From: Blasia pusilla | Lineage: Eukaryota | Reading direction: 5' to 3' | DNA length: 64,000 bases | Assembly: GCA_050084515.1 (NCBI GenBank) | Contig: CM114271.1 | Span: 29,636,001 to 29,700,000, forward strand | In this document: positions 4,513 through 64,000 of the stretch, one piece after another | How positions within the stretch are numbered: the stretch's first letter is position 1 | Layout: each line of letters begins with the position of its first letter | The notes under the pieces: model-generated | The model's database searches: none | The model's input: the letters and a program-made list of their open reading frames with translations, nothing else | Told to the model about the DNA's origin: nothing | Made by a program: the position numbers and the translations under genes

Positions 4513-6516
4513 CAACAGTAGTAGATCATACTGCTGTAGAGCAGGAGGTTTCCCGTCAATTTCCAGGTATGTCTCGATAATCGTCAGAGTTACAAATCCA
4601 CTAAAGCAACATAGTAAGAATATGGTTGAATTTGGCTTTGGGTTACTTGTAAAGGTACTGGTAGCTAAGAGCAATAGTAGTAGTTGTGAAAAGAATTTAT
4701 CTCCGTTGATGGAAACTCGTATAATGTGTCTAGATCAATACAAACTCAATGTTTAAGGGATCATGAAATATTAGCTATAAATGTTGGAATTTTCCGTAGG
4801 TTTTATCAACGATAAGTGTGACTCATGCGTTCTTTATGTTGAACAGAACGGGAATCAAAGATTAGAATAGTGGTAGACTAAATACAACAGTAGTGCCTTA
4901 TCTAGATCTTGTCATATCAATGATCATCTAGAGCGAAATAAAAAGTAAAGAGATTTCATAGAAAGCTTGAATGGTTTGTTATGCCGCTCACCTTTGGAAA
5001 TATGATGGTCAGTAACACGGTTGCAGAAGACCTGAGTAGCATGCAAGAAAATGCGTAAGGTGGAATCTATAAGCATATATCAAAGTGATTTCACAACACT
5101 TAGTGGAAATGTAGTATCTCAATCAATGTGATTTGAATGGGTGTAGCTACCAAAATGAGTGTGAGAATCAATAGATGAGCATCTAACAAAAATCCAGTGT
5201 AGGTGGCAACATTGTGCTATGAAAACCCCAAGTGAATAGTAGTGCTCAAGTCGTTTAATAATAGACGGCATTCATATGGCAAAGACTTTGGAAATTGAGG
5301 TGACACACAAATTTTAACACAACTCAGATTAAGTGGATATTATCAAGTCTTGGGGCTTATTCAAATGTTACTCTATGTATCTCTTGATTTCAACTCCTTG
5401 TATTTGCACTTTCCCAATCTGTTCGCCCATATCTCTCCTATTGAGATGTGTTCCTGCTACCTTTGATGCACGTAGTACTTTAGAGGGTCATAGGACATAA
5501 CGACAATCTTTAAAGCAAGAAATCATTGTAACTGAAGCCTTAGACAATTTGGAATGGCCACATCGTCCCGTTGTATATTTGGAAAGACACGTACTTGTTC
5601 AACGTGCTTCACTAGGATGTGGATGTGGGCCCTCCTGAAATGAACAAAAAAGATGACGTGTAAAGATGCACAACCCAAAAAAAAGATGGTGTGGGAAAAT
5701 TAGAGTTGTTTGAAATTTTGTGTGCTTCCCGCTTATGTAAAAAACGCAAGCAATGCTACAAAAGTAAGAAAGAAATGTTTGAAATCAATAGGCCATACCG
5801 TAACCGGATACCTTGCGGAAGCAAGCAAGAAATGCATGGTGCAAACAGTACAAGTGGGAAATGGGAGCAAAGAATTGCAAAGGGTCGGAGGCAAGTGACC
5901 AAAAATGGAAAGAAAAAAACTGACGACTCACAATACGGAATACCATTATGAAAGGATCGTGAAAATATTTGTCGCTGCGCAAGTTGGACAAGAGAGCCAA
6001 ACGGATTTCCAACTCTTACTTAGATTAGAAATTACACACCGGATGTGAACTTCAGGCGTCCGTCATTACTAGGTTGAAGAGATAAAAAAGGAATGAAACT
6101 ACGTAGTTTTTCCAAGTCCGTCTTCTTCATAGCCTCAAGACCCTGGACATTGGCGAAGTAATGTGTACAAGTTTTCCAAATACAACAAATAGAAGAATGT
6201 GATGAGCGAAACATGAATAAGTAGAGGGAGTCGACAAAATTCTTTTCTACATCTACGCTCTACGCAAGAGGCATGAAGCACAAAAACCGCGAGAAGACAT
6301 AAGCATTATGTTCAAACGTGAGAGCCCATCCAGATTCCCCAAATCCTTAAGGATCCCTTCCATCCGACGACACTCGGATAATCACATATAACAATGACTC
6401 ATAGATGCTCTACCTATGCTTTGCACTTGGATTTGACGTGTTGCCATGGGCATTCAAGGCTATCGTTATTACCTATTAGTAGGGGCCATAAAAAAATGCA
6501 ATGGACATAAGCATTA

Positions 6517-7027
6517 TGTCACGTCTTTTAGGATAGATCGATGAGATGTAGTAGAGCGCCTTGATGAGTAGTGGAGGACAGGCTCAATAGGTTGAGGATG
6601 ACCTATAGAGGCCCCGGGAAACCTGAGAGAGCAGGTTTCCCTTTTGTTTCGGCTCATTTGGAGCCATATTGAGGAGCTTACTATTTTAGGGAAGTACCAT
6701 TTTGAGTATATGATTATCTTTCTATTTTTGGTAAGTGGCCCTTGACCTCCTACATCAAGTCAAGAGCCAAGGAGATGACTTGGGAGAATAGGTTACCATG
6801 GAGACAGCTTGGGAGAGGAGAGGGATATACCTCAAGGAGAGAGAGCTTGAGAGCTCATTCTCTCTTTGTTGAACCTCTTGGCATGAGGCGGCGGAGCTAT
6901 GGTCCCTTGCCTTGTGAGTGTAACCCAAGCCTCTCATTAGGAGAGCGGCTTTGGTTTGACATGAGAGAGAGTGCACACCTTTGAGAGCTATGGTGTGAGA
7001 TGGTGTAGAGAGATTGGATCTTACTTT
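6517..7027 (+). repeat. Family A 5' terminal repeat, segment A1 only
   Basis: Matches 27747-28252 along its length, but is not followed by segment B. Confidence 0.9.
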
Positions 7028-7043
7028 ACAAAGAGAGAATGAG
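7028..7043 (+). promoter_or_regulatory. Putative self-priming primer-binding site, family A
   Basis: ACAAAGAGAGAATGAG directly after A1 is the exact reverse complement of CTCATTCTCTCTTTGT at 6854-6869, ~25-30 nt downstream of a weak TATA-like ATATAC (6825). Confidence 0.75.
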
Positions 7044-10039: not shown

Positions 10040-10086
10040 CTCTTTGAGGCGGTAGATTGTGTTTGCAAGTTGGAGTCTTATCAAGA

Positions 10087-15480: not shown

Positions 15481-16061
15481 TGTCGTGCAAATCCACATCA
15501 TCATACAACATACATCTCTGGCATACCATACTCACATACATACATAACATAGACGAGAGCATCCACAAACACAAGTGTACCACAATTGAAATCCATGAAA
15601 GACCTACTATCATAAAACACGTATAGAATCACATACAATCGAGCCAAACCCACTCCACGATGGGAGAATCTAGGTCGAAGCTTGCGGGAAACACCATAGC
15701 CAAGAGCTCTACTCACTACCAAGGCTAACTCCCAACGCAACAGGCTCAACTCAAAGAACTAACTGTTCTTTGAATGCACTCCACCTTATATCCTCCAACC
15801 TAAGAGCGGGCCCTACTGGAAAAGTCACCCTCAACTGAGTAACCCCCAACCCTATGTATGAAATCGCATCTCTACCTAGACACTACGGCCCTACATAAGG
15901 TATGGCCTCTACTAGCACACTATACTCTACGACATAATCCGTATGGTCATGAGAGCTGTCGTGCGAATCCACATCGTCATACAACATACATCGCTGACAT
16001 ACCTTACTCACATACATACATAACATAGAGGAGAGCATCCATAAACACAAGTGTACCACAA
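15481..16061 (-). repeat. Element B 3' terminus: B1 (16061-15957), GC, A2 (15954-15587), B2 (15585-15481)
   Basis: A 105-bp segment occurs twice (15481-15585, 15957-16061) around a 368-bp segment that matches 25068-25435. Confidence 0.92.
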
Positions 16062-16074
16062 CTCGCCCCCCTAA
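16062..16074 (-). promoter_or_regulatory. Element B polypurine tract
   Basis: TTAGGGGGGCGAG on the minus strand, immediately before B1. Confidence 0.8.
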
Positions 16075-16235
16075 CTGGCGGTTAGGTCCCTCTAACTCCC
16101 AGGTAGCCCTATACATCTACTACATGCTATACATTTTCTTGGGTGAACGAATCAGAAGGCCGGGTGCTAGGTTGCCCCATTGTTAGTCGCACATCTGTAA
16201 TCCATATCATGCAAAGATCAAGTCATCTACCTCTC

Positions 16236-17490
16236 CTAAGTACATCGAGGACAAACCCACCTTCCAGTAGGAACAACATCCATATGTGGAGTCAAACACA
16301 TCATGTGCGAACCCCTAGAACACCGATCACACACCAACATACGGGCTGCGTTACCAGCAGACCCACACAACATGCACCTCAAGCTAGCACGTATCATGAC
16401 TAAGCTTGGGTCAACAGTACCATCCACATTTGGAAGATGACATGGAGCACAATTACACACTCGGTCCTTCCAAACAACTCCATCACGACCCTCCAACATG
16501 AGAACTCCAGAAGCTAACACCTCACGCACTCGTAAAATAGTGCGGCCTGCCATCACATCCAACGTTGTTGGTGCAATCTGCTGCATATAGACATAGTCCC
16601 CCACATGGAACCTACGAATCAATGGTTGATAACCTCCACCCTGAATGGTTGCATACCGCAACGTATCCCTGTGTTGAGCAATGGCAAGATTCTCAAAGGC
16701 TGTTGGCATAACTCTCTGAAAGAGCTCTCCCCGCTGAGAACACATTCTCATCCACATCTCTGGGTCATCAAGGTTCACCACCTCACTAGACTCCCGATGA
16801 ATTGCTGCTGGCAAGTTTGGATCTCGGCCGTATAATATAAAATAAGGTGAGAAGGAAGCCAAGGATGCTTTGCGACTGAACCTATATCCCATGGCTAACC
16901 ATGGCAACTGAATATCCCGGTCTCAAGATGCCCCTTCTGTAGGCCATACTTGCGCAATGCCCTCTTCACCGTCTGAACCACACGCTCAGCCAAACCATCC
17001 GCCTCTGGATGATCTCGAGACGTGGTCCGATGATCAATCAACGCCTTATCACACAAGACCTGAAACTCACCCTGAAACTCTGTAAGCTGGTCGGTAAGCA
17101 CTTCAGCTGGTGCACCAAAATGACTAAGCACTCTATCAAGAAACGCATACGCCGTTCCCTCACTTGCCTTGTCAGGTAATGCCACCAACTCAATCCACTT
17201 GGAGAAGTGCTCCACCATCACCAACACATATTGATGATGTCGTACAGTCAACGATAACGGTCCCGCAAAGTCCACACTCCAATGATAACCCAACCCCATA
17301 ATAGGCAGGGGTGTAACTGTAGTGTAGGGGCATTGAATGATGCCCTCACCCGGTCACAAACTATACAACATGACACCAACTGTTGCACCTGAGTATGCAT
17401 GTCACGCCACCAATACTGACCAAGGAGTAAGCTATACGTACGCTTTACCCCAAAATATCCCAACTCCTCATGGGCATGTCGCACAATGCG
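16236..17490 (-). pseudogene. Element B DDE integrase with C-terminal PHD finger (frameshifted)
   Basis: HAHEELGYFG...CIVCDR; WSVDFAGP, LTDQ, AERVVQT; PHD CMLC...CDRC...H..C...WVCPRC at ~16240-16375. Confidence 0.93.
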
Positions 17491-17496
17491 CTCTCT

Positions 17497-19389
17497 CTAA
17501 GCCAAATGCGGCACTACTCGTACTCTACCATCCTCCCACACACGGAGAATATGTGATCCCTCCAATCGATACCTCTTAGCAAGTTGAAGAACACGGTCTC
17601 GCTCCTTGGCACTCACTATGCCTAGCACCCTACTGGTCCGTAGGAACTCCAACACCAACGCATCATCATGAATATCACGCTGATCCGTACCACCATCTCC
17701 AACCTTAGGATCTAAAGGTTGGCCATCTACCCTCTGACTAGAGTAAGATATCATGTGGTCATCCATACTAGAGTCCACCCCTAACCAACACAAAAAGGCG
17801 GATGCATGCCAACTTGGCACCATCTCCTCATCAACCTCGCCATGCCATCTAGCCCCAATTGTATCCTTTTGGCTAGTACATGGGTTCCTACTCAACCCAT
17901 CAGCATCAAGGTTGGCAACTCCAGGTCTATGTACCACTTGGAAGTCATACTCCTGTAAGATAAGAGCCCACCGTGCAAGCTTCCATGTAAGCTTGTGAGA
18001 CTCCATCAACCACTTGAGCGGCTGGTGATCAATAACAAGGGTAAACTATGTACCAAACAAGTAACACCTAAAGTGTGCCACAGCCCACACTACTGCCAAG
18101 CACTCTCCCTCATATGAACTATAGCGCGACTCCGCTGCATTATTCGAACAACTTGCATAGGCCACCACAAACTCCATGTGCTCATCATCATGTTGTGTCA
18201 ACACCGCTCCAAGTCCCAACCTACTCCAATCAGTGTGTAACTGAAATGGGCGCCCTCTGATAGGTCTCCTTAAGATAGGCGGCGCCACCAACTGGGCCTT
18301 AAGCTCCACAAAAGCTCTCTCATGATCATCTCCCCAGTGCCACTCTTGATCTGATTTCAGAAATTGGTTCAAAGGCTTTGCCATAGCACTAAATCCCTTC
18401 ACATACCTCCGATAGTAGTTCGCCAATCCCATGAATGCTCGAACTCTACTCACATCTACCGGACGCGGAATAAGTGCAATAGCCTCCACCTTTGCTTGCT
18501 GAACTCCCAAACCACCTAGATAGATCACATGACCCAAGTACTCAACATCCTCATGGAAGAACTTACACTTTCCTGGATGCAAACGTAGACCATGAGCTTT
18601 CAACCGCTCAAACATCATCTGCAAATGTATTTGATGCTCCTCCACCATGTTACTGAATACCAAGATATCATCAATGTAACATCGAACAAAATCCAACCAT
18701 GCTAGGATCCTGTCCATCACTCTCTGAAACTCGGCAGGTGCATTCTTCAACCCAAAGGGTAAGAATTTCCACTGGTACAAACAATCCTTGCCATGAGAGT
18801 TGACACCCCAAAATGCTGTCTTGGCCTTGTCACTCTCCCGAATCGGTAATTGATGGTATCCTGCCCGAAGATCCAAAATACTGAAAATCTTTGCCTGTCC
18901 CACCACATCAAAGATCTCCTTAGGTGTAGGCATGGCATACCTATCGGCCTTGGTTTGACGATTGATAGGACGGTAATCTCCACACATCTGCCTATCCGTG
19001 TAGTTGCCATTCATATCCTTTTTAGCAGGCATGACAGTGGCTGATGCATACTCTCCATGCGACAACTCCACTAATCGAGCCTCCAAAAGGTCCAACGTCC
19101 TACTCTAAATCAGGTCCCTCTCCATATCACTATATCGGTAGGGATGACGGAAGATTGGCGTATCACTAGCCAAATCAATCCGTATATCGGGTCCAACCAG
19201 AGCACCCAACTCCTTCATGCTAAAGGCAAAATAACTCCTATAAGCACGTAGGAACTGTCTCAAGCGTCGTTTCTTCACCTCCCGTAAGCTTGGGCCCAAG
19301 TAATGGCTCCCAAGTCTCCTCCACTGGCACACTAGAGGGAGAGGACGATGCCATTTGCTGCTACGCAAACCCCTCACAAGATGGTACAC
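17497..19389 (-). pseudogene. Element B reverse transcriptase, RNase H and linker
   Basis: DLRAGYHQ, LPFGLKNAP, YIDDILVFS, LHTDWS, YEGECLAVVWAV, NLDADGLSR. Confidence 0.95.
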
Positions 19390-19574
19390 CCTTAGCTACA
19401 CCATCATCTGAGCAACCAACTCCACATGCCCAACCATTACATCCCATTTACTCCAAGGATGCAAAATACTACTCTCCTTGCCCCCAGCCCATGCCTCTAC
19501 CGTCTTGGTAGCCATCGAGCTCATTACAAGGGGTGGAAGATCCACAAACGTAGTGCGGAGTCGTATTTTGGCCA

Positions 19575-20535
19575 TACCAAGACTCAAAATCCAAGTCAAA
19601 CAATTCAAGTCCATGGCCTGACCCAACACATGACGTCGTGAAGCCTCAGAAATGGAAGCAACCGTTGTCACACTAGTAGCAAATCCAATCACACGCTCTC
19701 TCTCATCAACGTTAGGCTCCACCAACTATCGTACATGAGAATCCCATACAAGCCCGGGACCACCTTCCCTGTAGGCATGTGACCAGGGAAAACTCACAAA
19801 TGTGGGTAGTGCCATCCTAGGCTAGCCCACACGGTTCACCACTGCCATGGGTGACCGATCAATAACCCTCACCACTTGAGAAAGTCGCCCAGTATCCAAG
19901 ATACTATCCACTGTAAGGCAAGGATCCTGCTGCACTGCATCATATGCTCGACGTAGAACCTCCCTAGGCAACAAGTTTGTCCACCATAAGCGTGGACGAT
20001 GTGCACGCGAGCCAACTCGCGCTGCATCCAACAACACCGCTGGTCCAATCCAAGACCGCACCTCATGAACACTCGCCATCATCCGGGTCCGAGTGTCACC
20101 CAACAATGGAACATTCTCCAGAATGTAAGCGGGAGCACGTGCCTGATGAACCTGAAGATGTCGTAACACCCGTAACATCTCCCAAAAAAATCGAGACCTA
20201 GGGTCGTGTAATCCCTCACCACGACCAGCACGTGTATGACCCTGACATGGCCATCCAGCAATCACCAATTCCACAGGACCAACCTTCTCAAAGTCATGCG
20301 CCCCCAACAATACAATGTGTGACGGCAAAGCACGCTGGTACCCACGAATAGCGGATGGCGGCAACAACTCAGGATATCTCCGCATCAACTGACCAATATG
20401 TCGGGATGAGACTCTCTGGGTCGTCTCATCTCGCTCCACATACATGTATCTCCGCACAGGAATACCGGCCTGCAACACTCCAGCCAAACCAGTGCTTATC
20501 CCACCAAAGAGATCTAACACACAAATGCCCTCCGG
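19575..20535 (-). pseudogene. DNMT3-like C5 cytosine DNA methyltransferase domain inside the polyprotein, between protease and RT
   Basis: Motif I VLDLFGGISTG, IV IAGWPCQG, VI ILENV, VIII DAARVGSRAHRPRLWWTNL, IX ERERVIGF, X RRHVLGQAMDL; two in-frame TAG stops. Confidence 0.92.
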
Positions 20536-20829
20536 CGGATACTGCCATACAATGGGTGTAGTATCCGAAGGGGATAACCCAACTGGACCAGAAGTAGGAG
20601 TCCGCCGTGGGGCCTCCTCTTCCTCGTGAGGTATATGACCTCACACCAAGCCTCTGCACTAGGCGTCGCCTCTGCCGTAATGCACCGCCTGAACTCCAAA
20701 GTGGCACATCCAACGATGAGGATGCCATTGCTGTAAAAATAGGGACCTCCTCTACCTCCTCATGCACAGGAGAATCCATAGCAGAAACATTATCCGCCAA
20801 AAAGTCTCCTGACCAAGTAACTACTCCAC

Positions 20830-21298
20830 TAAAACCAGCCACAAATGCTAACACTGTTGGGGAAGACCCTCTTGGTTGAGCCCCATAAATAAATCTCACA
20901 GGAACTTGGCTCATACGTCCATCCCCGGACTGCCAACCAGGTCTATAAGACGTTGTTTCAGTCCAGTAATCCATCTGAAAACCCATCAGGTACAATACTG
21001 CTCCTCCAACTAGTACATCATACGACTCGGCTAATGTGACTATCGCAGATACTCCCAACCGGGAGCTATCAATCACATGATCTGGTCTCAACTGTACAGA
21101 AAACTTCTCCCGTGTCATGAATTGAGACCTACCATTGGCTCCTCCAAGTGATGTTTGAATTTGGAATGGGCAAGGCTCAAGCTCTGACCTCCGAATACCC
21201 AAACCAATACATGCCGCCTTTCCCAACATCAAAGGTTGGGCACCAGAGTCTAACAAGACTCTATATGGTCTATACACCTGTCCTGTAGGACTCACCAA
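20830..21298 (-). pseudogene. Element B aspartic protease
   Basis: RVLLDSGAQPLMLG...YDVLVGG. Confidence 0.85.
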
Positions 21299-23434
21299 TC
21301 AGAATATCCCACTCCGATTGTCCAACATACATACACCAGGTGTAAGCCTCTCACGATCAATGGGTGGCCGGGTTGGTAATGCATCCATCTTCGCCGCTGC
21401 TGCCTCCCAAGTAGCACTGGTACTCAATGCTACACCTAATATAGAGGGTCCCTCCACCGCAACACCCTCATCCACCTCACCACGTGCAGCAGTAACATCC
21501 CCATGTTCACACAACGTGGCTGCTAGCTGAAATACAAGAGCTAAGTCAACCCCTAAAGCCATCAGCTCCGTTGCCGAAAATAATGGGGATCCCAACACTG
21601 GAGTTGCCATCCGCAATACTACACTAGATGCTGCATCCGTGTCTACTACACGCGATGTAGATGCCTCAATCCCCATTGTCGGCTCAATAGGCTGCGTAGG
21701 AACCATGGATGGAGTCCTAAGCACCTCAGACAACAAGAATGACTGGGGAAGCCTAGCCTGCCTCCTAGCCTCACCTCTCTGTGGATCCAACTCCATAGTA
21801 GCACCCCGTGGCTCTGACGCTCGAGTGGCTCCTCTCGTAACTGCAGTCGATGCCTCAACCTGTGCTGCACTCGCCATATAAGAGAGATCATCCCCTCCAT
21901 AAGAGGTGGAAGCCCCTGCTCCCGAACTCTATGTTGGATACCAGCCATAGTAGCCAACCTCTGCTCCAACTGCTCAATCCTGGTAGCCATAGTAGCCAAC
22001 TTCTGCTCCAATTTCTCAATCCTGGCAGCCATAGCTGACTCTGTCGTAGTGGTAGGGGTAGCCACTGTAGGCTCTCTAACCACTGGTCCACCTCTACCAC
22101 CCCTATCACCTCTAGCACCTCGGCCTCTTGGAGCTACTCCACCACGGCCGCAGCCTGATCTCAACTCTGGATGAAGATCAAAGCAACGCTCTCGAGGATG
22201 ACCTGGTCTCCCATAATGATCACACTAAGTTGGGGCCGACTGAGGCCCATCCTCCAAAGTCCGTCTCCCATCCTCTTGGGGACAAAACTTCCTAACATGA
22301 TCACCTCCACATGTCCAACATGCTTGTCCTTGCTGCGGGGCAGCAAATGAAGGCAATGGTCTCTACGCAAGTGTCCCTCTAGGACCTGATTGAGGTCGTG
22401 TGTACCCCCCACGACTCCCACTACTACTACCACCACCACTACTACGAGACTGTGAGGTGGGTTGCTGAACACGAGAAGTAGTAGTTGTATCCCTACCGAA
22501 TGCGGATGTCACCACTCTCTCCTTCACCATGTTAAGCTCAATCTTCTCAGATAGAGCAAACACATGGGTCAATGTGGATGAATCATCACTCAGAAGAGTA
22601 GCATCACGTACCCTGCGGCGCAACTCTCTGTCCAAGATCCCATATATCAAAACTGGAGTGTCTGAGCCTCAATCACACCCTGGGTGACTGAAATCAAGCG
22701 TCGCATACGAGTGTATGCCTCACGAAGACTCTCACCAGTCTTTCGCTCAAATTCTTGAAGACTCCTCAACTTCTCTATCTTCACTCCCTGATAGTTTTTC
22801 TTCAACCTCTTGAAGAACTCTGCAACCACGCTAAACGATGGTTGGGCACTAGTACACTAGTACCCCCACTGGTACCTCCACTGGTACTCCCACTCCGGCT
22901 CGTACTCGTACCACTCAACGTCGGGCTGGCTGGCATAGTAGGAGCACTACTACCAGTACCACCATGGGTGATAGACACATAGCCTGGTGACCAATATTGT
23001 CTCCATGCCTCAATCTCAGCAACATGGTCCTTCCTAAACTCATGGTAATCATCCATGGGTGGTCCCTCCAAGTGCTGAAACAACCCCTTCCAAGCCAAGA
23101 AGGGTGTAAACAACGTGGCGTTCCGCAACATCTGCATATCACACCACGTATCAAACTCCTGCATGAAGTCCTCCAACTCAATGGTGCCCACTGCACCCGA
23201 GTATCGTCGTGGGCCCTTCATGGCCCCATATATCCCATCCATGTTTCAAATCAATGGAGCTGCAACACTTGATAACAACGTAGAAGACTCGATGTTTGGA
23301 ACGCCCTCGTCCTCCTCTTCATCAACCGTCGGAAGTGGAAAAGGTAGCCGATACCTAAATCCACTCCGTGTGAAACCACCACTGTCCACACCACAGTCCC
23401 CAACCAGACCACCCGACAGCTCCATGATGACCAA
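21299..23434 (-). pseudogene. Element B gag, with two zinc knuckles, an RGG stretch and a coiled-coil repeat (fragmented)
   Basis: PRRYSG...LEDFMQEFDTWC; RKTGESLREAYTRM; knuckles CWTCGGDHVRKFC and CDHYGRPGHPRERC at ~22180-22325. Confidence 0.8.
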
Positions 23435-24202
23435 CGCCGATGCTGCACCATCACCACCAAATTATCACCACTAAGTAACCAAGTGACGTCGATGTCGCTA
23501 TACTATTCTAGCTCTACTAGCTATGGGTGTAGGCAACCTAACCTGTCATCACCACAAGAAGCCTCCCACGGTCTACTGGTCATCACTCTAGCCTCTATCG
23601 GTAGCACACAGGAGTAACACTACTCTGGAAATCAGCGTCAACCCTAACAATGGGCGCGCAAGCAAGAAGCAACGATGGAGGGGATCCAAACACAGGAAGT
23701 CCAACGACAACCCTCCAATCGCAAATGGAAATCAAGGTAACACAATCCACAAACATGGCGCCCCCTGAATCCACAAAACCCACCACAAAATTCTAACGCA
23801 ATAGCTACTGTGCCGCGGGTCGATGACGTGCTAGTCGAACTCGCAGCACCTGAAAATATCACCTGCATGGAGAGGCTACAGCGTACTACGCGCTAGAGGT
23901 CCATCAACCAAAACCCTGAGATGAGATGCATAAAGCGCCTAATACCTCTCCGAATAGCACCAAATGAGCTACACCAGTGTGTACATTGGCATAGTTAAGA
24001 ACTCAGCAATTAAGCGTCTTCCAGGCAGAATAGCCCAAAGATGGGTGACCACTTATGCAACACTCAAATCACAAATCCTGCAAAAACTACCTCATGCCCA
24101 AGCAAGCAAGCTTGCTTGCTTGCCCCTTGCTCCTTACTCTGCCTCTCATGCCCACTCGCCCCGAGCTACCACGAGTTGCCTCGAAGCCTCAAAACGCCGA
24201 GA

Positions 24203-24342
24203 AATGCCCTTATCGCCCCGTTCGGCATGCTTCGTTATGGAGAGAGGCCCAACCAAGGCGCCCCCAAATGCTCGAGACATGCCCCTATTGCCCCGTTCGC
24301 CACGCTTCGCTATGGAGAGAGGCCCAACCAAGGTTCCCCCAA
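24203..24342. repeat. Two ~75-bp tandem copies in the element B leader
   Basis: atgccc.tat.gccccgttcg.ca.gcttcg.tatggagagaggcccaaccaagg occurs twice. Confidence 0.8.
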
Positions 24343-25053
24343 CGGGATAGGCATCTCCAACAATGAACGAGTCACCAACCAACCAGCCCCTCCGATCTGC
24401 TGTCACCACCACCTTGAGCTATGTTTCGATCACAATTAAAAATCAGCAAAATTGAATCTGTTTTGACTAGAATTTAATTGACCACCATAGCTATGTTTCC
24501 ACAAAAAATCAGCTATAATTGAGCTCTGTACTCCGAGCTAAAAATCAAACAAACTTGCTGTCCATACACCTCAAGAATCACAGCGCTTTCGCCCAGTTTC
24601 ATGAACGCGGAAAGCCGCAACGCTCCACACACTCGAGCGGATATCTTCACATGAGATCACAATACAAGTAGCAATAGGAACCTCTCACCCGATCTGGATG
24701 AACTTCAACAGAACTTCCGCACTCCAAGCTCTCCACATCAGAAAACCGTCGAACACGAACCAAAATCTTCAATCCTTGATAACTTCCAACTCCCTTGACA
24801 AAATCCGGCGATCTAAAGCACGTTGGAAAGCTCTTAGCAAGGTGCTTCTTTCCCAACCAAACCACGCACCGTATTCACACCGCCGCCGCTCCTTGTAGCA
24901 GTCTCCCTTGTGCTACCACTTGGGGTCGCACCGCCTCCCGCGTAGGATCCGTCACTACAACATAGGCCACAAGCCACGAACATCCACGGCTGAGTACACA
25001 ATCAGCCCTAACTAGATCCTACTGATCCACAATCAAAGCTACCATCGATCTAG

Positions 25054-25068
25054 GTCAGTTCTTTGAGT
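25054..25068 (-). promoter_or_regulatory. Putative self-priming primer-binding site, element B
   Basis: Minus-strand ACTCAAAGAACTGAC abuts A1 and pairs (one G:U) with GTTAGTTCTTTGAGT at 25244-25230, just downstream of ATATAA (25272-25267). Confidence 0.75.
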
Positions 25069-25435
25069 GAAATCCGTGAAAGACCTAATATCATAAAACA
25101 CGTATAGAATCACATACAATCGAGCCAAACCCACTCCACGATGGGAGAATCTAGGTCGAAGCTTGCGGGAAACACCATAGCCAAGAGCTCTACTCACTAC
25201 CAAGGCTAACTCCCAACGCAACAGACTCAACTCAAAGAACTAACTGTTCTTTGAGTGCACTCCACCTTATATCCTCCAACCTAAGAGCGGGCCCTATTGG
25301 AAAAGTCACCCTCAACTGAGTAACCCCCAACCCTATGTATGAAATCGCATCTCTACCTAGACACTGCGGCCCTACATAAGTTATGGCCTCTACTAGCACA
25401 CTATACTCTACGACATAATCCGTATGGTCATAACA
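25068..25435 (-). repeat. Element B 5' terminal repeat, segment A1 only (368 bp)
   Basis: Matches 15587-15954; no B segment adjacent. Confidence 0.92.
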
Positions 25436-25439
25436 CGGG

Positions 25440-25841
25440 CTCGATAGGAAAGAGCTCCTAGCACTCCGAATGCAGCAGCTAGAGCGGCGGGAAGAAGATA
25501 TTGCAGAAGCATTAGTCAAAATGAAGGAAGCAAGGTTGAAAAATAAGGAGCGCTTTGACAAAACGCATCGACTTCGGAAGGAGCCTATAAGAGAAGGAGA
25601 TTGAGTCTTGGTGCACGACAATAGCCTCGACAACCAGCATAGTATAATTAAGAAGTTTGCACGTTGTTGGTTTGGTCCATACGTTGTAATCTTTGCTTTT
25701 GACAATGCCACTTATAAATTACGTGAACTAGATGGCACAATTCTCAAGTTGCCAATTGCAGGAAAAAGGGTCAAGATTTTCCGTAGACGTGAGGGATTTC
25801 TTGATTTCGATTCAATCTGTCTAGAGGCACAACAAAAATAA
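25440..25841 (+). pseudogene. Element C integrase C-terminus (GPY/F region; no chromodomain seen)
   Basis: LDRKELLALRMQQLERREE...WFGPYVVIFAFDNATYKLRELDG. Confidence 0.85.
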
Positions 25842-25915
25842 GTTTGAGTAAAATACCAAGAAGTCTCGATGTTTTTGGCACATATCGGAGGATGTGCAGG
25901 TTTGGAGGGGGTGAA

Positions 25916-27191
25916 TGTCGTATAGTAAAATCAGCTAGTGTGTAAACTCCTTCCTCGTTAAGTGTTAGATAGAGTTTTATAAGTATTAAATAAATTAGCT
26001 TAGGAAAAGGAAATCCCCATGTTTAAACCTCTTTATGATGCCTCTTTTATGCGGGCCCAACTTTAGAAAAGAGGTAATAAATAAAAGATGACTTTATAAA
26101 AGTAAAGTAGTGAGGTTTGTGCTTTAATGAAAATCAAAATTAGGCTTGGTTGGTGGCTAGGTTAGTTGGGGTAATTTGGAAAATATCAAGTGGATAAAAG
26201 AGGATATTTTGGAAGAGATAAGAGGAAATCTACTTGTGTCAAAATATGATTGGCTAAGCCTTGAGAGGAAGCCATATGGCACAAGATAAGATTAGCTCTA
26301 TTTCGTACTCTTGTGGCTCTCTTGTGAGTATATAAAGAGGAGGGACCTTCAAGGGTTCATCACCTTCTATTCCATATCTTGAGTCTTTCGTGTCACTCTT
26401 GAATGTATGACTTTGGGATTGCTTGCTCTTCCAATGAGAGTGGATCATCCCTCTTGGGAGAGTAACTTGACCATGGTCTATTCTTTGAGAGGTTTCTAGA
26501 GTGCGGTGTGTGTGTGGAGATGAGAGGTTTGTCACCTTAGAGGAGTTTAGTCATACTAAAATAGTGAATTTTTTGGCTTGTTACTTCCCCAATGAGAGTG
26601 GATTAGCTCTCTTGGGAGAATAACTCCGCCAGAACCCATTCTTGAGGAGAGTAGAGAATGTCTATCAAGCATGGATAGGGGTGGAGCACAAGTTGTGCCC
26701 GACTTTCCTTTCCTTAATCCATACCATGTCAAGATACTCTTTGTAGATAGGCACTGGTTCACTTGCTATTTAGTTTATCACTTTGGGGAGGCGTTCATAA
26801 CCAGGTCATTCAATCTCCAACTGCGGTGACCCTTCCTATCGTCACATATGGAAGGACATGGGATTATACTTTGTATGTCCTTATATAGAAATCCATGGAC
26901 GTCAATAGGCCTGCTCAAGTAGGGTTTAATACTAGTTGTGCTATCTTCCTCGTATACAAGTTTAAAATACTCTATAGGGATTTTATAGTTAGGAATTTCG
27001 GGGCCCGATGTTACGAAGAAGTGATCGCCTCGGCACTTCCATTTGTGATACCTGTCGTGAGAGAATGGAGAGTATACATAATAACTTTATATTGAAAAAG
27101 GAGATCTTCTCAGAGAATTCATCTTGCATCGACCGCGTCTGCTGCAGCTAGAAGGCCTGCCCTTACTCGAAGAAAGGCTCTCGACACGACA
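25916..27191 (+). repeat. Element C 3' LTR, preceded by PPT GGAGGGGGTGAA (25904-25915)
   Basis: Same length and termini as the 5' LTR. Confidence 0.95.
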
Positions 27192-27195
27192 ACGC

Positions 27196-27447
27196 GATGG
27201 TATGGTATGGAAGGATCATGTGCGTAATTGTGCGCCATGTCACCTTCCTAACATTGATGGTACATTAGATCCAAGCTTAGCAGTAGTTCCTGCAGGCTTG
27301 CGTTTTATGTTGTGTGGTGCGGCCATGATGCTAGTCTATGATGGATGTTCGAGAGGTTGGCATATGGCATGTCTGACGCCACCTCTCACTAGGGTTCTTT
27401 GGAGCGATGGATGTGTCCCAAATTTACATAGAGCAGATACTAGGTAG
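27196..27447 (+). pseudogene. Family A integrase tail with degenerate PHD finger
   Basis: DGMVWKDHVRNCAPCHLP...MLCG...DGCSRGWHMACLTPPL. Confidence 0.85.
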
Positions 27448-27617
27448 GTTTCGATTCTGACTTTTTCTGTGACATGGATGACAGGAAGGCCACTAACGAT
27501 GGGGCCACATGAGCACCGGGCTTTATGCTTTTAGCGTTATAGAGATGTATGTCGTGGTCGGTAGGGATGGATCGCTATCTGGAGTTAGAGGGACCTAATC
27601 ATCAGCTAGAGGGGCGA

Positions 27618-28379
27618 TTGGAGATATTTTGGTACTTCTCGCCTCTGTGTATGGATGCCATGAGTTAGCATGGGATCGTGTGTGTTTGTGTGTGTGTTCG
27701 ATGATAACGATGTATGTTGTGTAGCGATGTGTATACGCACGACAGCTGTCACGAGTGTTAGGATAGATCGATGGGATCTAGCAGAGCGTCTTCATGAGTA
27801 GTGGAGGACAGGCCGAGGAGGTCGAGAATGGCCTGTTGAGGCCCTGGGAAACCCGAGAGAGCAGGTTTTGCCTTCGTTTTGGCTCATTTGGAGCCATATT
27901 GAGGAGCTTACTATTTTACCATTTTGAGTATATGATTGGCTTTCTATTTTTGGTAAGTGGCCCTTGACCTCCTATATCAGGTCAAGAGCCAAGGAGGTGA
28001 CTTGGGAGAATAGGTTACCATGGAGAGAGCTTGGGAGAGGAGAGGGGTATACATGAAGGAGAGAGAGCTTGAGAGCTCATTCTCTCTTTGTTGAACGTCT
28101 TGGCATAAGGTGGCGGAGCTATGGTCCCTTGCCTTGTGAGTGTAACCCAAGCCTCTCATTAGGAGAGCGGGTTTGGTTTGACATGAGAGAGAGTGCACAT
28201 CTTTGAGAGCTATGGTGTGAGATGGTGTAGAGAGAGATTGGATCTTACTTTATTGGAGATATTTTGGTAATTCTCGCCTCTATGTATGGATGCCATGAGT
28301 TAGCATGGGATCGTGTGTGTTTGTGTGTGTGTTCGATGACAACGATGTATGTTGTGTAGCGATGTGTATGCGCACAACA
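27618..28379 (+). repeat. Family A 3' terminus: PPT (27608-27617), B1 (27618-27744), GC, A2 (27747-28252), B2 (28253-28379)
   Basis: A ~127-bp segment occurs twice around a copy of 6517-7027; junction reads CACGACA-GC-TGTCACG. Confidence 0.92.
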
Positions 28380-29130
28380 CACGCGTTAGCCTATTTAGGC
28401 ATGTTGGCTATGGAGAGCTAGAGTGTGGAGACTTCGATGGCGAGGTCTAGTGGAGAGTCCTTGGATCCCGAGGCCAATGAGGAGACCGTAGGTGGCCGAG
28501 ATATTCATGATAATGGAGTAGTCTTGGAGTACCTTTGTACTAGTAGCGTTGCGAGCACCGTGGGTGCTAGAGAGCGGGATCGGATCCTACAGCGGGCCAG
28601 ACGGTTCCGTTGGGAGGGGACACATGTTTTGAGGGTTTGGAAGGATGGTAGAGTACACGAAGTGCCGCATCCTTTGCAGAGAGCACGAATAGTGTAGCAT
28701 GCCCACGAGGAGTTGGGTCACTTTGGGATGAAGCGGACGTACAGCTTGCTCGAGATTCAGTATTGGTGGCGAGGCATGCAGACTGACGTTCAGCAGTTTG
28801 TTGCTAGGTGCATGGTGTGTGATCGGGTCCGAGCATCGTTTAATGCTCCAACTCCACAGTTGCATCCATTACAGATCATCGGCTTAGGGTATAGATGGAG
28901 TTTGGATTTTGCAGGACCTTTGCCTTTGATAGAGCGTTATTGTCGTTATGTGTTGCTGATGGTCGAGCACTTCTCGAAGTGGATCGAGTTGGTTGCATTG
29001 CGTGACAAAGCGAGTGAGGGAGTAGCTTATGCCTTCCTTGACAGAGTACTGAGTCATTATGGCGTACCGGCTGAGGTGTTGACAGACCAGGATAGCGAGT
29101 TTCACGGTGAGTTCCAGGCCTTGTGTGATC
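28380..29130 (+). pseudogene. Fragment of a second family A copy (post-RNase H linker, integrase HHCC and core)
   Basis: GGRDIHDNGVVLEYL...HAHEELGHFG...CMVCDR...WSLDFAGP...LTDQ. Confidence 0.88.
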
Positions 29131-29524
29131 AAGAGCCAAGGAGGTGACTTGGGAGAATAGGTTACCATGAGGAGAGCTTGGGAGAGGAGAGGCATATACC
29201 TCAAGGAGAGAGAGCTTGAGAGCTCATTCTCTCTTTGTTGAACCTCATGGCATGAGGCGGCAGAGCTATGGTCCCTTGCCTTGTGAGTGTAACCCAAGCT
29301 TCTTATTAGGAGAGTGGGTTTGGTTTGACATGAGAGAAAGTGCACACCTTTGAGAGTTATGGTGTGAGATGGTGTAGAGAGATTGGATCTTACTTTATTG
29401 GAGATATTTTGGTAATTCTCGCCTCTGTGTATGGATGCCATGAATTAACATGGGATCGTGTGTATTTGTGTGTGTGTTCGGTGACAGCGATGTATATTGT
29501 GTAGCGATGTGTATGCGCACGACA
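29129..29524 (+). repeat. Outer family A 3' end: partial A plus B (29398-29524)
   Basis: Joins the integrase fragment at a TCAAG microhomology; ends CACGACA followed by the ATTA duplication. Confidence 0.88.
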
Positions 29525-32092
29525 ATTATGTTCCAACGTGAGAGCCAACCAGGATTCCCCAAACCCCTAAGGATCCCTACCATCTGACAACACAATATTC
29601 AAGGATATTGTTACTACTACCTATGTAAATTTATATTATTATTGGTGAATGCCTCTTCATTTGGAGATCACCATCCTTTGGACACAGATCTTTTTTACTC
29701 AACAAAAACCATTTTCATTTAAATTAATAAAATTTCAAATTCAATTATACATTTAAGACGGATAATTCAAAATTATATATTCGCTTGCACGCCACTAGTA
29801 TTCGCTATAACATAACTAATTCCTTCCATCCACAACCAATTAACCTTATAGTGTTACATCAACGTTAGGGGAGAGCCCGGGTTGTTTAATAACCTAGCCT
29901 GATGAATTTCAAAATTACCGTTTTGGTTTCTCTACTCCGGCCAAAAACAGACGAAATAGTAATAGTATCAGAATACCATAAACCGAAGAAATATGTAGGG
30001 TCTTCTTTTGTATTAGTATCAAAATAGCTTACCGGAATGGGCAAACCTTCAAAATTTACCATCCTATTTTGTAACCGGAAAGGTACCGGTTACAAAATAG
30101 CCGGACCCTGTGTTACACTCATATACAGACTGATTACAGAGAATGCTTCCAGGTGGACGTATAAGTACGGTTATTAAGCCAGATTCTCTCCGTGCATGTT
30201 CGATTTCTCCTTTACGGATGCCCATCATCTTCGAGAAATGGGTTGTTCTCGGAATGGTCTCCAGGTGGCCAATGGGACTCGTGGGAAGTCTTAGTAGTAG
30301 TCATAGCTCTCTTGTTGTTGCTGATATTGCTGCTGTTGGTGAGTTTCATCGTTAGGGGGAATGCCCCTTCTTCCTTTTCTGGTCGTGTTTGGCCTTCAGG
30401 TTTTGATTGAGTCCCCTCTTTGTACTTCCTATGGGTCGTTTTTATCGAAGTGCATCTTTCTTCGTTCTCGGCGAGTCAGAACTCAGAAGTCAAGGGGAAC
30501 GAGCCATCCGGAATCCTTCCTGTGATTGGCGGCTGGTCATCGCTCTGCGAATCAAACAAAATAAACCAAAGGTCCTCCGCACGGAGCGCAGCCCTTGGGA
30601 CCTGTGCATGTACATATCAAGTCACAAGTCTGGACTCTGGGGCCTGGCCGCCTGGGCCTGTAATGCCGCTGCCCTGGCCATCGTTTTTTTCTCGTTTGGA
30701 GCCGGGACAAATTCTGGGTTATGGCAGAGATTCTGATACAGATGCTCACCGCCGAAGGCTGGCGTCTTGTCCGTTGGAGCGCCGTCGACGGGAATGGCGA
30801 GAGTACTCAGAGGCCCGTGTCATTCTCCTAGGGGTGCATAAATGCATTCCTGTCAGGTGCACAGACTCACACTTTCTGAGCTTCGGGCCTCTCGAGCCAA
30901 ACTGTACGAGGCGGATACGTTTCGAAAGCTCGTGGACCGACAGGCAGACAGACAGACATACAAACGTCTTCTTCACCTCCTCATCCAGCAGGTTACTCGG
31001 GATGTCAATGGGATGGTAAGGTCCCCCCCCCCTCCCCCACCTGAGGTTATGGCGACGTTGAGTGATGAAGGAACTGACCGCAAATCGGCGGTGGAGCGAG
31101 TCAGTGCATGATGTGGCCGCGATTCACCCATCTGTCCCGACCTCGAAGCGAGCCTACCTTGACTCAAAGGGCTCTCAATCCTTGCGCAAGGATTCAAAGG
31201 AGGAAGTTACGCTGCAGATCCAGCAAATAGTTGCTTCAAAGCTACTTAGTCCAGTAGATCCGGGGACCAAATGGGAACCACAAAATGTCACTCGATCAGA
31301 AACATGAGTCGCTGTGATATCAAATTGTACAATTATTTTTTACTCGAGTAGAAAATACATGCAACTGATTGAAGACAACAACCTCAGGAGAATTTACTAC
31401 ATTATTTCCACCCTCGACCTTCGGGCTTTGACCGCGAACACTGCCTACCGCTGAGAGTATTAATCAAAATACTAGAGTCGTAAATGTGTAAAGCAGGTAA
31501 TCTGCAGAAGCACTGGCATGGTAAGTTCGTCTATCGCTAGTTGAAAAAAAGCTCCGTCCTAATGGGCAAACGGTGTGATGAAGTTGCCAATTGAACATGG
31601 GACCTGGAAAATACACTAAATTCTCCAACTCAGATCCACTGGCAAGTACGAGAAATGAGAATGAAACGCTGAGCACGTTCTACGAGCTATCATGTCACAC
31701 GAAATCGTTCTTGGATCCACTGGGAAGTACAAGAAGTGAGGACGAAACTTTCAGTAACGTCACGCAGATCTTTGATAGATTTTCCTTGACGTCTGGGTTG
31801 CTAGCCTGGACTCGATTGCTCTCCTGTGTCCGAGTTCAGTCTGCCTACCAAAGGAAGACATCCTCATCAGGTCGCTAACTGTTTGAATCGCAGTAGACTA
31901 CGTCAAGCCACGCCGTCCGTTCTCGGACACCATTGGCATGTACCTGCAACATTGGTTCACGCGAATGTGTTAGCCACTCGGACGTCAGTGAGTTGGACCG
32001 TATCATGCATCGCCGCCTTCTGCGAGAGTAAGCAGGAATTCAAACCAATTCGGATTTTTCACACACGGCCTGCGGGAGTGAAGACTGAGGTA

Positions 32093-39404: not shown

Positions 39405-40340
39405 TAAGCTAAGAATCCATATTAAACAGTTCAGATCCATCGCCTAACCAAAGACACAATGTTGGGATGCCTCTAACAGTAATAGTATTGCCATCATGCC
39501 TATGAGGAGCCCCATTGCTCGCTCTCTCTCATCTGCATTAGGGTCTACCAACCTCTATGCCTAATCATCCCAAACCAAGCCAGAAGCATCCTCCTTATAT
39601 GCATAGGAAGCAGGAAAACTAACAAATGTGGGAAATGTTGTTGGAGACATACCAATTCTGCTAACCATCGTCAATGGAGGTCGATCATCATGCCTCGCTG
39701 CCTATGACGGACATCCTGAATCCAAAATGGAATCCACAAATAAATGGGAGGGATGCTCTACTCTTGCATAAACCCTTTGCAAGACCTCGTGTGGCACCAA
39801 GTTGGTCCACCATGTAGCACCAAGTTACATGCAAGGAATATGTTTGTGAACCTACACTTGACCCATCCAAAAATATTTTTGGGCCAATCCATGCACAAAC
39901 CTGATGTGTACTCATCACAACATTCTCTAGAATATAATCTAGATAATGAGACCAGTGTTTTTGCAAGTGCCACAAGACCCTCATCATCTCCTTAAATAAC
40001 TTGGACCAAGTGTCAGCTAAACCACCACCTTGTCTAGCACTCGATTTGTCTTGAAATGACCAACCTGCATTGACCAAGGCAATAGTCTCAATTTAATCCA
40101 AGTCCCGCATCCCCAAAAAAGAAATATCCCTTAGTAAGAAACTTTGGTAACCCCATATGACCAACGTAGATAACAAGTCACAAAAAAAAGCGTAATTATA
40201 CTACATGTTAAAATGAGACACATCTTGCAACCTCATCATGCTCCATATACAAATATTATTCCACATGCACTCCTCCTTGAAAAATAGCAGCGAACCCCTA
40301 CTAATCCCTCCAAAGAGATCCAACACTCTAATACTCTCCT
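39405..40340 (-). pseudogene. Decayed DNMT3-like domain
   Basis: IRVLDLFGGIS, NAGWSFQD (PC lost), YILENV, WIGPKIFLDG, AMDLNCLIWIL. Confidence 0.82.
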
Positions 40341-58549: not shown

Positions 58550-60200
58550 AGGCAACTTACCCTAAAGAGTAAGTTTCTCTATATAGCTCCAAATGAGCCA
58601 AAACGAATGGAAAACCTGCCCTCTCAGGTTACCTGTGGCCTCATTAGGTCATTCTCGACCTCCTAAGGCTATTCTACACTATTCTCACAAGTGCTCTACA
58701 ACAGACTCGTCGATCTATCCTAAAGAAGTGACAGTTATCGTGCGCATACATATCGCTACACAACAAACATCGCTATCACCAAATACACACACAAACACAA
58801 AAATCCCATGCTAACTCATGACATCCAAACATTGAGACAATCAATTACCAAAATATCTCCAATCGCTCCTCTAGCTAGTATTTAGGTCTCTCTAACTCCA
58901 GATAGTCATCTATCCCTATCTACCATAACATACATCTGTATGAAGCAAAAAGGCTAGGTGCTCATCTGGCCCCATCGTTAGTTTTCGTCTTGTTATCCAT
59001 GTCATAGACACAAGTCAGAATCCATACCTACCTAGCCTCTACTCTATGTACATATATGGCATATCCTTCATCCTCGAAGAACCATAATGAGAGGTGGCGT
59101 TAGACATGCCATTTGCCACCCTCTTGAACATCCATCACAAACTAGCATAGTGGCTGCACCACGGGGAGAACCACACAACATACACCTCAAGCTTGCAAGA
59201 AATACTGCTAAGCTCAGGTCAATTATACCATCAATGTTAGGAAGGTGACATGGCATATATTTACGCATGTGGTCCTTCCAAACCATACCATCACGTCCCT
59301 CCAATAAGAGTACATCAAATGGAAAAATATCTTTCACTCTCACAATAGTGCGTCATGCCATCACATCCAATATCGTAGGTGCCGTCTACTGCAAGTAGAC
59401 ATAGTCTCCTTGATGGAACCTCTCGATAGTTTGTCAATAACCACTTCCCCGAATAGTCTCAAACCTCAGCGTATCCCAATGTTGCGCAATCGCAAAGTTC
59501 TCGAACACCATGGGCATCACTCTCCAGAAAAACTCAGCCCTTTGGGAACATGCTTGCATCCATATATCAGGATCTTCAAGGTTCAACATCTCACTCACAC
59601 CTCAACAAATAGCCGCAGGTAAATCAAGCTCTCGGCCATAAAGCAACAAATACGGTGAAAAAGATGTTAAGTCTGTCTACCTGCTAAATCTGTATCCCAT
59701 TGCCAACCACAGACACTATAGGTCCCAATCTCCTAGAGAACCTCTCCGCAACACATACTTAGGTAAACCTCTCTTCACCGTCTGCACAACCCACTCCGCT
59801 AGTCCATCCGCCTCACGATGATCTCATAAAGTGGTGCGGTGGTCAATCATTGTTTGATCACACAAGGCCTAAAACTCCCTGTGAAAATCCATACCCTGGT
59901 CTGTCAACACCTCAGTTGGCATGCCAAAATCACTAAGCACTTGATATAGGAAGGCATACGCTACTTCCTCTTTTGCTTTGTCACGCAATGCAACCAACTC
60001 TATCTACTTCAAGAAGTGCTCAATCATCACCAACACATAATAACTATGGTGCTCCATCAAAGGTAATTAAAGGTCTTGCAAAATCCAAACTCCATCTATA
60101 ACCTAAACTCATGATTGGTAGTGGATACGATTGTGAAGTTGGGGCATTGAATGATGCCCGGACCCGATATATCACACACCATGCACATGGCAACAAATCC
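58550..60200 (-). mobile_element. Decayed family A 3' portion: integrase-PHD, PPT, B (58863-58736), junction, partial A (58733-~58550)
   Basis: CMLCGSPRGAATMLVCDGCSRGW; the reverse complement matches B1 and A2 of 27618-28252 in the same order. Confidence 0.82.
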
Positions 60201-62196: not shown

Positions 62197-64000
62197 TGTC
62201 GTGCGAATCCACATCATCATACAACATACATCGTTGACATACCATACTCACCTACATACATAACATAGACGAGAGCATCCACAAACACAAGTGTACCACT
62301 ATTGAAATCCGTGCAAGACCTACTGTCATAAAACACATATAGAATCACATACAATCGAGCTAAACCCACTCCACAATGGGAGAATCTAGGTCGAAGCTTG
62401 CGGGAACCACCATAGCCAATACCTCTACTCACTACCAAGGCTAACTCCCAATGCAACAGGCTCAACTCAAAGAACTAACTGTTCTTTGAGTGCACTCCAC
62501 ACTATATCCTCCAACCTAAGAGCGGGCCCTACTGGAAAAGTCACCCTCAACAGAGTAACCCCCAACCTTATGTATGAAACCGCATCTCTACCTAGACACT
62601 ACGACCCTACATAAGGTACGGCCTCTACTAGCACACTATACTCTATGACATAATCCAAATGGTCATGACAACTGTCGTGCGAATCCACATCATCATACAA
62701 CATACATCGGTGACATACCATATTCACCTACATACATAACATAGACAAGAGCATCCACAAACACAAGTGTACCACAACTCGCCCCCCTAACTGGCGGTTA
62801 GATCCCTCTAACTCCCAAGTAGCCTTATACATCTACTACATGCTATACACCTTCGTGGGTGCACGAATCATAAGGCCGGGTGCTAGGTTTCCCCATCGTT
62901 AGTCGCACATCTGTAATCCATATCATGCAAAGATCAAAACATCTACCCCTCCTAAGTACATCGAGGACAAACCCACCTTCCAGTAGGAACAACATCCATA
63001 TGTGGAGTCAAACACATCATGTGCCAACCCCTAGAACATCGATCACACACCAACATACGGGCTGCGTTACCAGCAAACCCACACAACATACACCTCAAGC
63101 TAGCACGTATCATGGCTAAGCTTGGGTCAACAGTACCATCCACATTTGGAAGATGACATGGCGCATAATTACGCACATGGTCCTTCCAAAAAACTCCATC
63201 ACGACCCTCCAACATGAGAACTCCAGAAGCTAACACCTCGCGCACTCGTAAAATAGTGCGGCCTGCCATCACATCCAACGTTGTCTGTGCAATCTGCTGC
63301 AAATAGACATAGTCCCCCACATGGAACCTACAAATCGATGGTCGATAACCTCCACCCTGAATGGTTGCATACTGCAACGTATCCCTGTGTTGAGCACTGG
63401 CAAGATTCTCAAAGGCTGTTGGCATAACTCTCCGAAAGAGCTCTGCCTGCTAAGAACACACTCTCATCCACATCTCTGGGTCGTCAAGGTTCACCACCTT
63501 ACCAGACTCCCAACGAATTGTTGCTGGCAAGTTTGGATCTCGGCCGTCTAACAGAAAATAAGGTGAGAAGGAAGCCAAGGATGCTTGGTGGCTGAACCTA
63601 TATCCCATGGCTAACCATGGCAACTGAATATCCCAGTCTCCAAGATGCCCCTTCTGTAGGCCATACTTGCGCAATGCCCTATTCATTGTCTGAACCACAC
63701 ACTCAGCCAAATCATCCGCCTCTTGATGATCTCGAGACGTGGTCCGATGATCAATCAACGCCTTGTCACACAAGACCTGAAACTCACCATGAAACTCTGT
63801 ACCCTGGTGGGTCAGCACTTCAGCTGGTGCACCAAAATGACTAAGCACTCTATCAAGAAATATATACGCCGTTCCCTCACTTGCCTTGTCAGGTAATGCC
63901 ACCAACTCAATCCACTTGGAGAAGTGCTCCACCATCACCAACACATATCGATGATGTCGTACATTCAACGGTAACGGTCCCGCAAAGTCCACACTCCAAC
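62197..64000 (-). mobile_element. 3' part of a second family B element: integrase-PHD, PPT, B1 (62777-62673), A2 (62670-62303), B2 (62301-62197); runs off the window
   Basis: Colinear and highly similar to 15481-17280, including the B-A-B terminus; PHD CMLC...CDRCSRGWHMMC...WVCPRC. Confidence 0.92.

Follow-up and report, generated by a model that had tools for sequence, protein, structure and literature searches.

The window, i.e., the whole 64-kb stretch of DNA that was analysed, carries copies of a repeat family with the palindrome GACA-GC-TGTC at an internal joint. The family is a Ty3/Gypsy element whose repeats are arranged A1-internal-B1-GC-A2-B2, that is, with a permuted LTR. The features of its copies are listed here.

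6513..6516 and 29525-29528, plus strand: target duplication ATTA of copy 2, left and right
6517..7027, plus strand: A1, the left end of copy 2, first letters TGTC, with TATA-like bases near 6825-6829
6854..6869, plus strand: putative self-primer of copy 2, complementary to 7028-7043
7028..7043, plus strand: putative primer-binding site of copy 2, adjoining A1
27608..27616, plus strand: polypurine tract (PPT; G-run then CG) of copy 2, immediately 5′ of B1, at the same place in relatives
27617..27744, plus strand: B1 of copy 2, 128 bp, ending ..CACGACA
27741..27750, plus strand: internal att-like palindrome GACA-GC-TGTC of copy 2, spacer at 27745-27746
27747..28251, plus strand: A2 of copy 2 (the second A), with a primer-like stretch at 28076-28091
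28252..28379, plus strand: B2 of copy 2; the A2/B2 joint, 28251/28252, is the putative end-to-end joint
28380..29524, plus strand: extra integrase-region fragment, 3′ part of A and third B (29397-29524), with the right end of copy 2
15481..25435, minus strand: copy 1, near full length, with stop-broken frames and target duplication CCCG
15951..15960, minus strand: junction of copy 1, spacer GC (B1 16063-15957, A2 15954-15588, B2 15587-15481, G-run 16071-16066)
25057..25068, minus strand: primer-binding site of copy 1, complement at 25230-25241
19825..20640, minus strand: DNMT3-like C5 methyltransferase domain of copy 1, upstream of the reverse transcriptase (RT)
18049..19104, minus strand: RT and start of RNase H, copy 1
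16898..17353, minus strand: DDE integrase core (rve) of copy 1, best solved match Ty3 Gag-Pol
16239..16922, minus strand: C-terminal part of the integrase with a PHD finger, copy 1
62667..62676, minus strand: junction of copy 3, spacer GT; B2 ends at 62197 and the copy runs past the window edge
58730..58739, minus strand: junction of copy 4, spacer AC; no B2 seen

Copy 1 also has gag-like and protease-like frames, the protease being recognised by a DSG motif without a Pfam match. Its methyltransferase is closest to DNMT3A, and among named homologs those nearest to the element proteins come from Marchantia, Calypogeia and Sphagnum. The domain order protease-RT-RNase H-integrase is that of Ty3/Gypsy, as are the DDE integrase, the TG..CA ends and a target duplication within the 4-6 bp of that group. 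However the two full identical LTRs of Ty3/Gypsy, with the PPT at the 3′ TG and the CA at the primer site, are not present; the left repeat lacks B, and the PPT lies before B1. Of 58 genome copies tried, 29 could be scored at both ends (the remainder being without an end in the stretch examined or without A2-B2), and 27 of these have target duplications of 4 bp.

An ordinary two-LTR Gypsy element (8744-27191) is nested in copy 2 and itself contains copy 1. Its LTRs are 98% alike and also start with TGTC and end with CACGACA; it has a 4-bp duplication and a TGG-type primer site, and its RT is only ~32% like that of the junction family. At the right end of copy 2, the third B (within 28380-29524, beyond B2) carries the target duplication. 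An older, more decayed relative, 65-73% alike, is present at 36548-40500 (minus strand), with no B/A repeats recognised at its 3′ end. The window also has host genes for a short-chain dehydrogenase (32096-33109, minus strand) and an RWP-RK domain protein (52730-53098, plus strand), and an array of a 9-bp unit at 4015-4122.

A sequence-only reading of this DNA had singled out four 10-mers as att-like junctions, and all four are found in the window letters where it had placed them. The one at 27741-27750 is indeed perfectly palindromic and lies where B1 meets A2 in copy 2. The other three (15951-15960, 62667-62676 and 58730-58739) are plus strand readings of minus-strand copies, with element-sense spacers of GC, GT and AC, respectively. 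The 10-mer by itself is not enriched in the 64-kb window (18 matches at two mismatches or fewer versus 24.9 expected), and its weight comes from position: all four lie at one and the same joint within a single repeat family. Genome-wide, the junction patterns of two subfamilies, with a spacer of 0-6 nt allowed, have 1205 and 594 matches; reversed control patterns have 0. Thus, although the 10-mer alone is not enriched, chance was rejected as its origin on position and conservation.

The integrated ends, ..ACA and TGT.., are without the spacer, as that reading had said, and the 4-bp duplications (ATTA in copy 2, CCCG in copy 1) are adjacent to them. Copy 1 departs from these ends: its A2 has TCTC, and its 5′ end has TGTT. 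The two bases that follow B2 are of 13 kinds among the 48 of 60 loci in which the end was found, and thus the spacer is absent from integrated ends. A junction consensus from many copies gives a nearly constant spacer length, 2 nt in 193 of 200 junctions (98/100 and 95/100, the first 100 matches listed for each subfamily). The proposal that the joint equals two integrated ends plus 2 bp is supported by this near-fixed length, by conservation in distant relatives, by the DDE integrase and by the 4-bp duplications. The palindromic junction is a real, conserved feature of a Ty3/Gypsy variant with an apparently different integration route, in which the integrase would make a staggered cut, CA^GC-TG.

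By hand tally, the 2-nt spacers among the 200 listed junctions are GC in 62, AC in 55, GT in 52, AT in 13 and other pairs in 11, and thus the perfect palindrome, with 62 of 200, is a minority state in the genome. The GT and AC spacers represent single C-to-T changes at CTG. In 20 A1/A2 pairs CAG/CTG is the most mutable class, ~12% per copy versus 5.7% for CG and 2.1% for CHH. The spacer is mutated at 14 of 40 sites versus 12% per CAG/CTG site (p=1.4e-4), two to three times the background rate and comparable with the most variable of the other CAG/CTG sites, which reach 36-40%. Double spacer mutants are scarce (pooled odds ratio 0.28, p=4e-4), which would fit, as a guess, a loss or alteration of intact sites only. 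A hot spot of GCTG or CAGCTG context was rejected: GCTG and ACTG behave alike, and CAGCTG elsewhere is changed in 1/19 and 1/20.

Inherited spacer lineages were also rejected. The spacer state has no tree signal, with 19 changes versus 18.8 after shuffling (39 of 58 loci, at least 84% identity) and, in a second set, 11 versus 9.7 (25 of 30 rows); both trees are star-like and of low power. In the copy-1 subfamily GC-spacer copies are younger and changed spacers are in older copies (p=0.002), and an age effect measured by sibling identity is absent in both sets. Since the spacer state has no tree signal and GC copies are younger in one subfamily, active copies probably carried the GC spacer.

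It had also been speculated that the element's own methyltransferase could decide which junction is cut. Such a switch, with the DNMT3-like domain methylating one junction, would be an addition to an integration route and does not exclude any. The raised mutation of the spacer and the rarity of double mutants suggest that something may act on the intact site, and the DNMT domain is kept in many relatives. However the spacer changes are C-to-T changes of the most mutable class, matched by other CAG/CTG sites, and in one subfamily they are found in older copies. In addition, the two junctions offered to the enzyme would be identical in sequence, and retrotransposon DNMT3s that have been tested methylate CG, in the accessible parts of the reports; a Klebsormidium relative was inactive in yeast, a result that its authors call inconclusive. 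The laboratory-active Gypsy-7a_cRei shares the layout, and its published legend (the legend, not its sequence, was consulted) lists no methyltransferase. The switch is therefore very unlikely, and the claim was not upheld.

The borders of the repeats indicate how the element may be copied. The G-run with its CG end adjoins B1, not A2, in three subfamilies and in relatives. On the other side, a stretch of A, ~30 nt below a TATA-like motif, is complementary to the bases right after A1. The complement is 15, 11 and 14 nt long in three subfamilies of differing sequence (0 of 500 shuffles each) and at least 9 nt in 22 of 29 A1 copies. Folding closes a self-primer helix with z of -3.6 and -3.3, values that are favourable since the windows were chosen to begin at the complement. 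In the test applied to metagenome loci, the complement is weak in 2 of 7 copies from the element's own genome, and among 19 metagenome loci the three with an A1 match all lack it (4-5 nt, the chance level), two of them with ill-defined ends. The complementarity suggests self-priming, with the RNA pairing with the site that adjoins A1. Under standard LTR reverse transcription, the placing of the PPT 5′ of B and of the primer site 3′ of A would give a linear DNA with B-GC-A repeats, whose ends are without TG..CA.

Such a permuted linear DNA would require a transfer of B from one end, the left, to the other, so the A2/B2 joint should resemble an end-to-end joint, and it does. Of 72 copies, 22 are unscored at this joint; among the 50 scored, 19 differ in its length, versus 0 of 28 at A1/PBS and 4 of 69 at PPT/B1. 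By hand tally, the first 100 of 1067 A/B joints are flush in 66, have one extra A in 22, have primer-site letters in six and are of other kinds in six. Genome-wide, primer-site letters are found in 32 A/B joints, with 8 or more letters in 11 of them, and polypurine-tract letters in 11; the parent element has both only away from the A/B joint. Unremoved primer sequence is a mark of retroviral 2-LTR junctions. Four leftover-bearing joints are tied to an upstream B1-junction (L014, L029, C1:23789618 and C1:9237057); most primer-remnant joints are not tied to one, and some of these may be solo repeats or deletions. On C1, primer-site joints are tied to a junction no less often than ordinary joints (1/7 versus 21/88). 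The A2/B2 joint thus appears to be a real end-to-end joint, made anew. In the earlier reading the internal junction had been both an att site and a copy of a circle joint; the first part stands and the second does not, since the junction sits inside the reverse-transcribed repeat B-GC-A and the end-to-end joint is apparently A2/B2.

If A2/B2 were inherited, the element could be copied in the manner of PAT and Ngaro: RNA would run from A1 to B2, the ends would be rebuilt from a B1/A2 template, and a circle with two junctions would be opened by one cut. PAT and Ngaro, with their split direct repeats, have this repeat order, as described in the accessible parts of PMC4157794 and PMC7192593. A few RNA reads span A/B, which would also fit. 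RNA depth across B1-junction-A2 is mostly one-strand, 62-88, and goes down to 3-8 past A/B, in three raw runs of the same species label of which 6-12% was read, with reads from other copies and a stretch that ends at A/B. In these partly read runs no defined RNA start or end was found. However this manner of copying gives no role to a PPT before B1 or to a primer site after A1, and it cannot place letters of either in the A/B joint. The joint type also has no tree signal (8 changes versus 8.0 shuffled, 22 rows, a star-like tree of low power), and no tyrosine recombinase was found in the 18 frames scanned, in which rve is present. We regard inheritance of A2/B2 by such copying as highly improbable. 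As a separate observation, the junction family is transcribed at 27400-28240, mostly on one strand, in the three RNA runs.

With A2/B2 made anew, the route of a permuted-LTR Ty3/Gypsy element in which the ends are joined before the integrase cuts the internal junction is probable. Judging from the anatomy, RNA would start in A1 and prime itself just after A1, and the plus strand would start from the PPT before B1. Ordinary LTR reverse transcription would then give a linear [B-GC-A]-internal-[B-GC-A], with ends devoid of TG..CA. The right end (A) would be joined to the left end (B) in a 2-LTR circle or a circle-like junction, giving A2/B2; this step is strongly suggested by the joints. The integrase would nick after CA on both strands at the GACA-GC-TGTC on the primer-site side, and the 2 bp would melt to 5′ overhangs and be lost. 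Insertion would yield A1-internal-B1-GC-A2-B2 with a 4-bp duplication, which is the outcome observed, and the uncut junction would be the template of the next round. The junction on the primer-site side might be chosen, at a guess, since it is double-stranded first and nearest the joined ends. The circle, the cut and the intermediate are predicted from the genomic record.

Against this end-joining route, the two junctions of a circle would be identical, and still no permuted copy was found (0 of 571), which the model alone does not explain. In one subfamily, with exact motifs, the internal-B-xx-A pattern has 564 matches and A-B-xx-TGTCA has seven, of which six are not junctions (no A follows the motif) and one is a tandem. 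Also against it are the joint in the copy-1 subfamily, which is nearly uniform (2 of 27 vary in length), the weak or missing self-primer in some loci and the share of joints that are unscored.

The permuted LTR and the cut could be the same with another order of events. The integrase would cut the left junction of the linear DNA, hold the released B and insert both CA ends, and host repair would seal A/B later; or RT would jump from end to end without a closed circle. A variable joint with primer leftovers is explained equally well, the linear substrate accepted for retroviruses (according to the accessible text of PMC11054761) is kept, and an end-bound integrase would favour an end-near junction, matching the missing permuted copies. 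However a B of only 6-8 nt, as in Gypsy-7a and Gypsy-9 in the supplement consulted, is a very small piece for the integrase to retain, and until joining the right half of att would presumably be incomplete. Cutting before sealing is a possible but unlikely order, and joining before cutting is preferred.

Odd forms of the element are also present in the genome. Two A-internal-B copies have a target duplication, exact in L137 and with one mismatch in L118; possible sources are a 1-LTR circle and recombination of B1 with B2. L103 is a probable solo A-B. Tandem forms are B-GC-A-B-GC-A (L104:857-2013) and internal-B-GC-A-internal (L036:1391-2429). Right flanks of six loci (L101, L102, L103, L105, L106 and L107) are NN-TGTCA, possibly a mild target preference.

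The layout is conserved far beyond this genome. Among metagenome relatives (80 loci, 69 examined, with five pairs that resemble one locus filed twice), the junction and B2 are both present in 23 loci of 40-78% protein identity, with spacers of GC in 13, GT in five, AC in four and AT in one, where the ungapped match presumes 2 nt. The G-run followed by GACAGCTGTC is found in 6 of 16 mostly GC-rich loci. In the GC-rich relatives L196, L204, L221, L222, L236 and L240 the DNMT domain is after RT, not before. Chlorophyte homologs are present, and the Pol of Klebsormidium nitens with a DNMT (P0196) is a homolog with 43% identity in RT; an RT tree leaves P0196 unplaced inside a 22-row group of support 84 (a quick tree with one long-branch outgroup).

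In the consulted part of the supplement of PMC9940879 (118 of 158 places, by eye), 12 of 21 Chlamydomonas Gypsy families have CA-gc-TG at the same place, with a B of 6-60 nt. These are families 2, 3, 5, 6, 7, 8, 9, 10, 11, 14, 18 and 21; families 1, 4, 12, 13, 15, 16 and 17 are ordinary, and 19 and 20 give no clear reading. Several families with the layout have a TGG primer site directly after A1. One member, Gypsy-7a_cRei, is active in laboratory strains, and the Fig. 6 legend of that paper shows its left LTR without the last 8 bp and a domain list without a methyltransferase (PMC9940879). The balance of this evidence tilts slightly towards a Gypsy clade extending across the green lineage, from Chlamydomonas to bryophytes, for which a 2-LTR circle or junction is the obligatory substrate, with att shifted into U3, cDNA ends that have to be joined and an internal CA^GC-TG palindrome opened by the integrase.

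In the accepted view, linear DNA is the form from which LTR elements integrate, and 2-LTR circles are dead ends. The genomic evidence suggests a large and old clade with linear DNA devoid of att ends and insertions scarred by end joining. If true, this would be a natural case of a route suggested for retroviruses in 1984 but since abandoned, and an extra replication route for the Gypsy group, with transposition dependent on end joining. It would also link two unexplained figure-legend remarks and explain elements that are mis-annotated by LTR finders. With Gypsy-7a_cRei, reported in the part of the literature consulted as active in the laboratory, the route is directly testable in algae that already carry an active element.

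IS3- and IS30-family elements resemble the present system in that a DDE enzyme cuts abutted ends with a short spacer; they differ in being DNA transposons with a transposase-made junction. HIV-1 integrase reportedly cuts an internal palindromic junction in vitro. The closest biochemical precedent is foamy virus, whose integrase cuts an internal palindromic junction in vitro (PMC1180852, as far as its accessible text goes). The foamy 2-LTR junction is palindromic and loses only 2 nt, and the integrase cut was proposed to yield both processed ends. However ligation in foamy virus takes place at the att junction itself, and the route is under dispute, with the circle route rejected for retroviruses (PMC11054761, in the part consulted); here att is template-encoded in the repeat and the ligation point is 6-200 bp off.

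PAT, Ngaro and SymbioDIRS also have split direct repeats, A1-coding-B1-A2-B2, with an internal junction of two ends (PMC4157794, PMC7192593, in part). They use a tyrosine recombinase, in contrast to the DDE integrase, TG..CA ends, 4-bp duplications, PPT and primer site found here, and the present A2/B2 appears to be made anew. Tf1/Sushi and Tcn1 (PMC7175516, PMC6317226, in part) have an RNA 5′ end complementary to a site after the 5′ repeat, the Tf1 type of self-priming (PMC7175516), and the present element resembles them in its complement. Those elements have ordinary LTRs and chromodomains, whereas this one has a PHD and no chromodomain match. Troyka was considered and rejected, since its LTRs are ordinary, with CG..CG ends and a 3-bp duplication (PMC12440569, in part), versus TG..CA and 4 bp here.

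The open literature searched gave no description of the junction or of the integration route, and a prior description elsewhere is possible. Two papers (PMC5890265 and PMC9940879) remark on odd repeats in figure legends, with no mechanism found in the parts consulted. KnitGypsy-Dnmt3 of K. nitens is a Gypsy Pol with a DNMT3-like domain and, by its Fig. 4c legend, a DIRS-like repeat arrangement (PMC5890265), and both properties are found here. The accessible text of that paper has no junction, PPT, primer site or mechanism, nor the word PHD; the present host is a land plant and probably a bryophyte, with >1,700 junction matches. In Gypsy-7a_cRei, Gypsy-14a and relatives (PMC9940879, in part), internal parts end PPT-B-gc, where B corresponds to the 3′-terminal 6-60 nt of the right LTR, and Gypsy-14a has the whole layout and the same integrase-PHD motifs, with homology judged by eye. 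The Chlamydomonas families differ in that B is far shorter, Gypsy-7a, -8 and -9 carry TGG-type primer sites in place of a self-primer, and Gypsy-7a lists no DNMT. New here are the PPT before B1, the putative self-priming site after A1 and the A/B joints with leftovers of either primer site.
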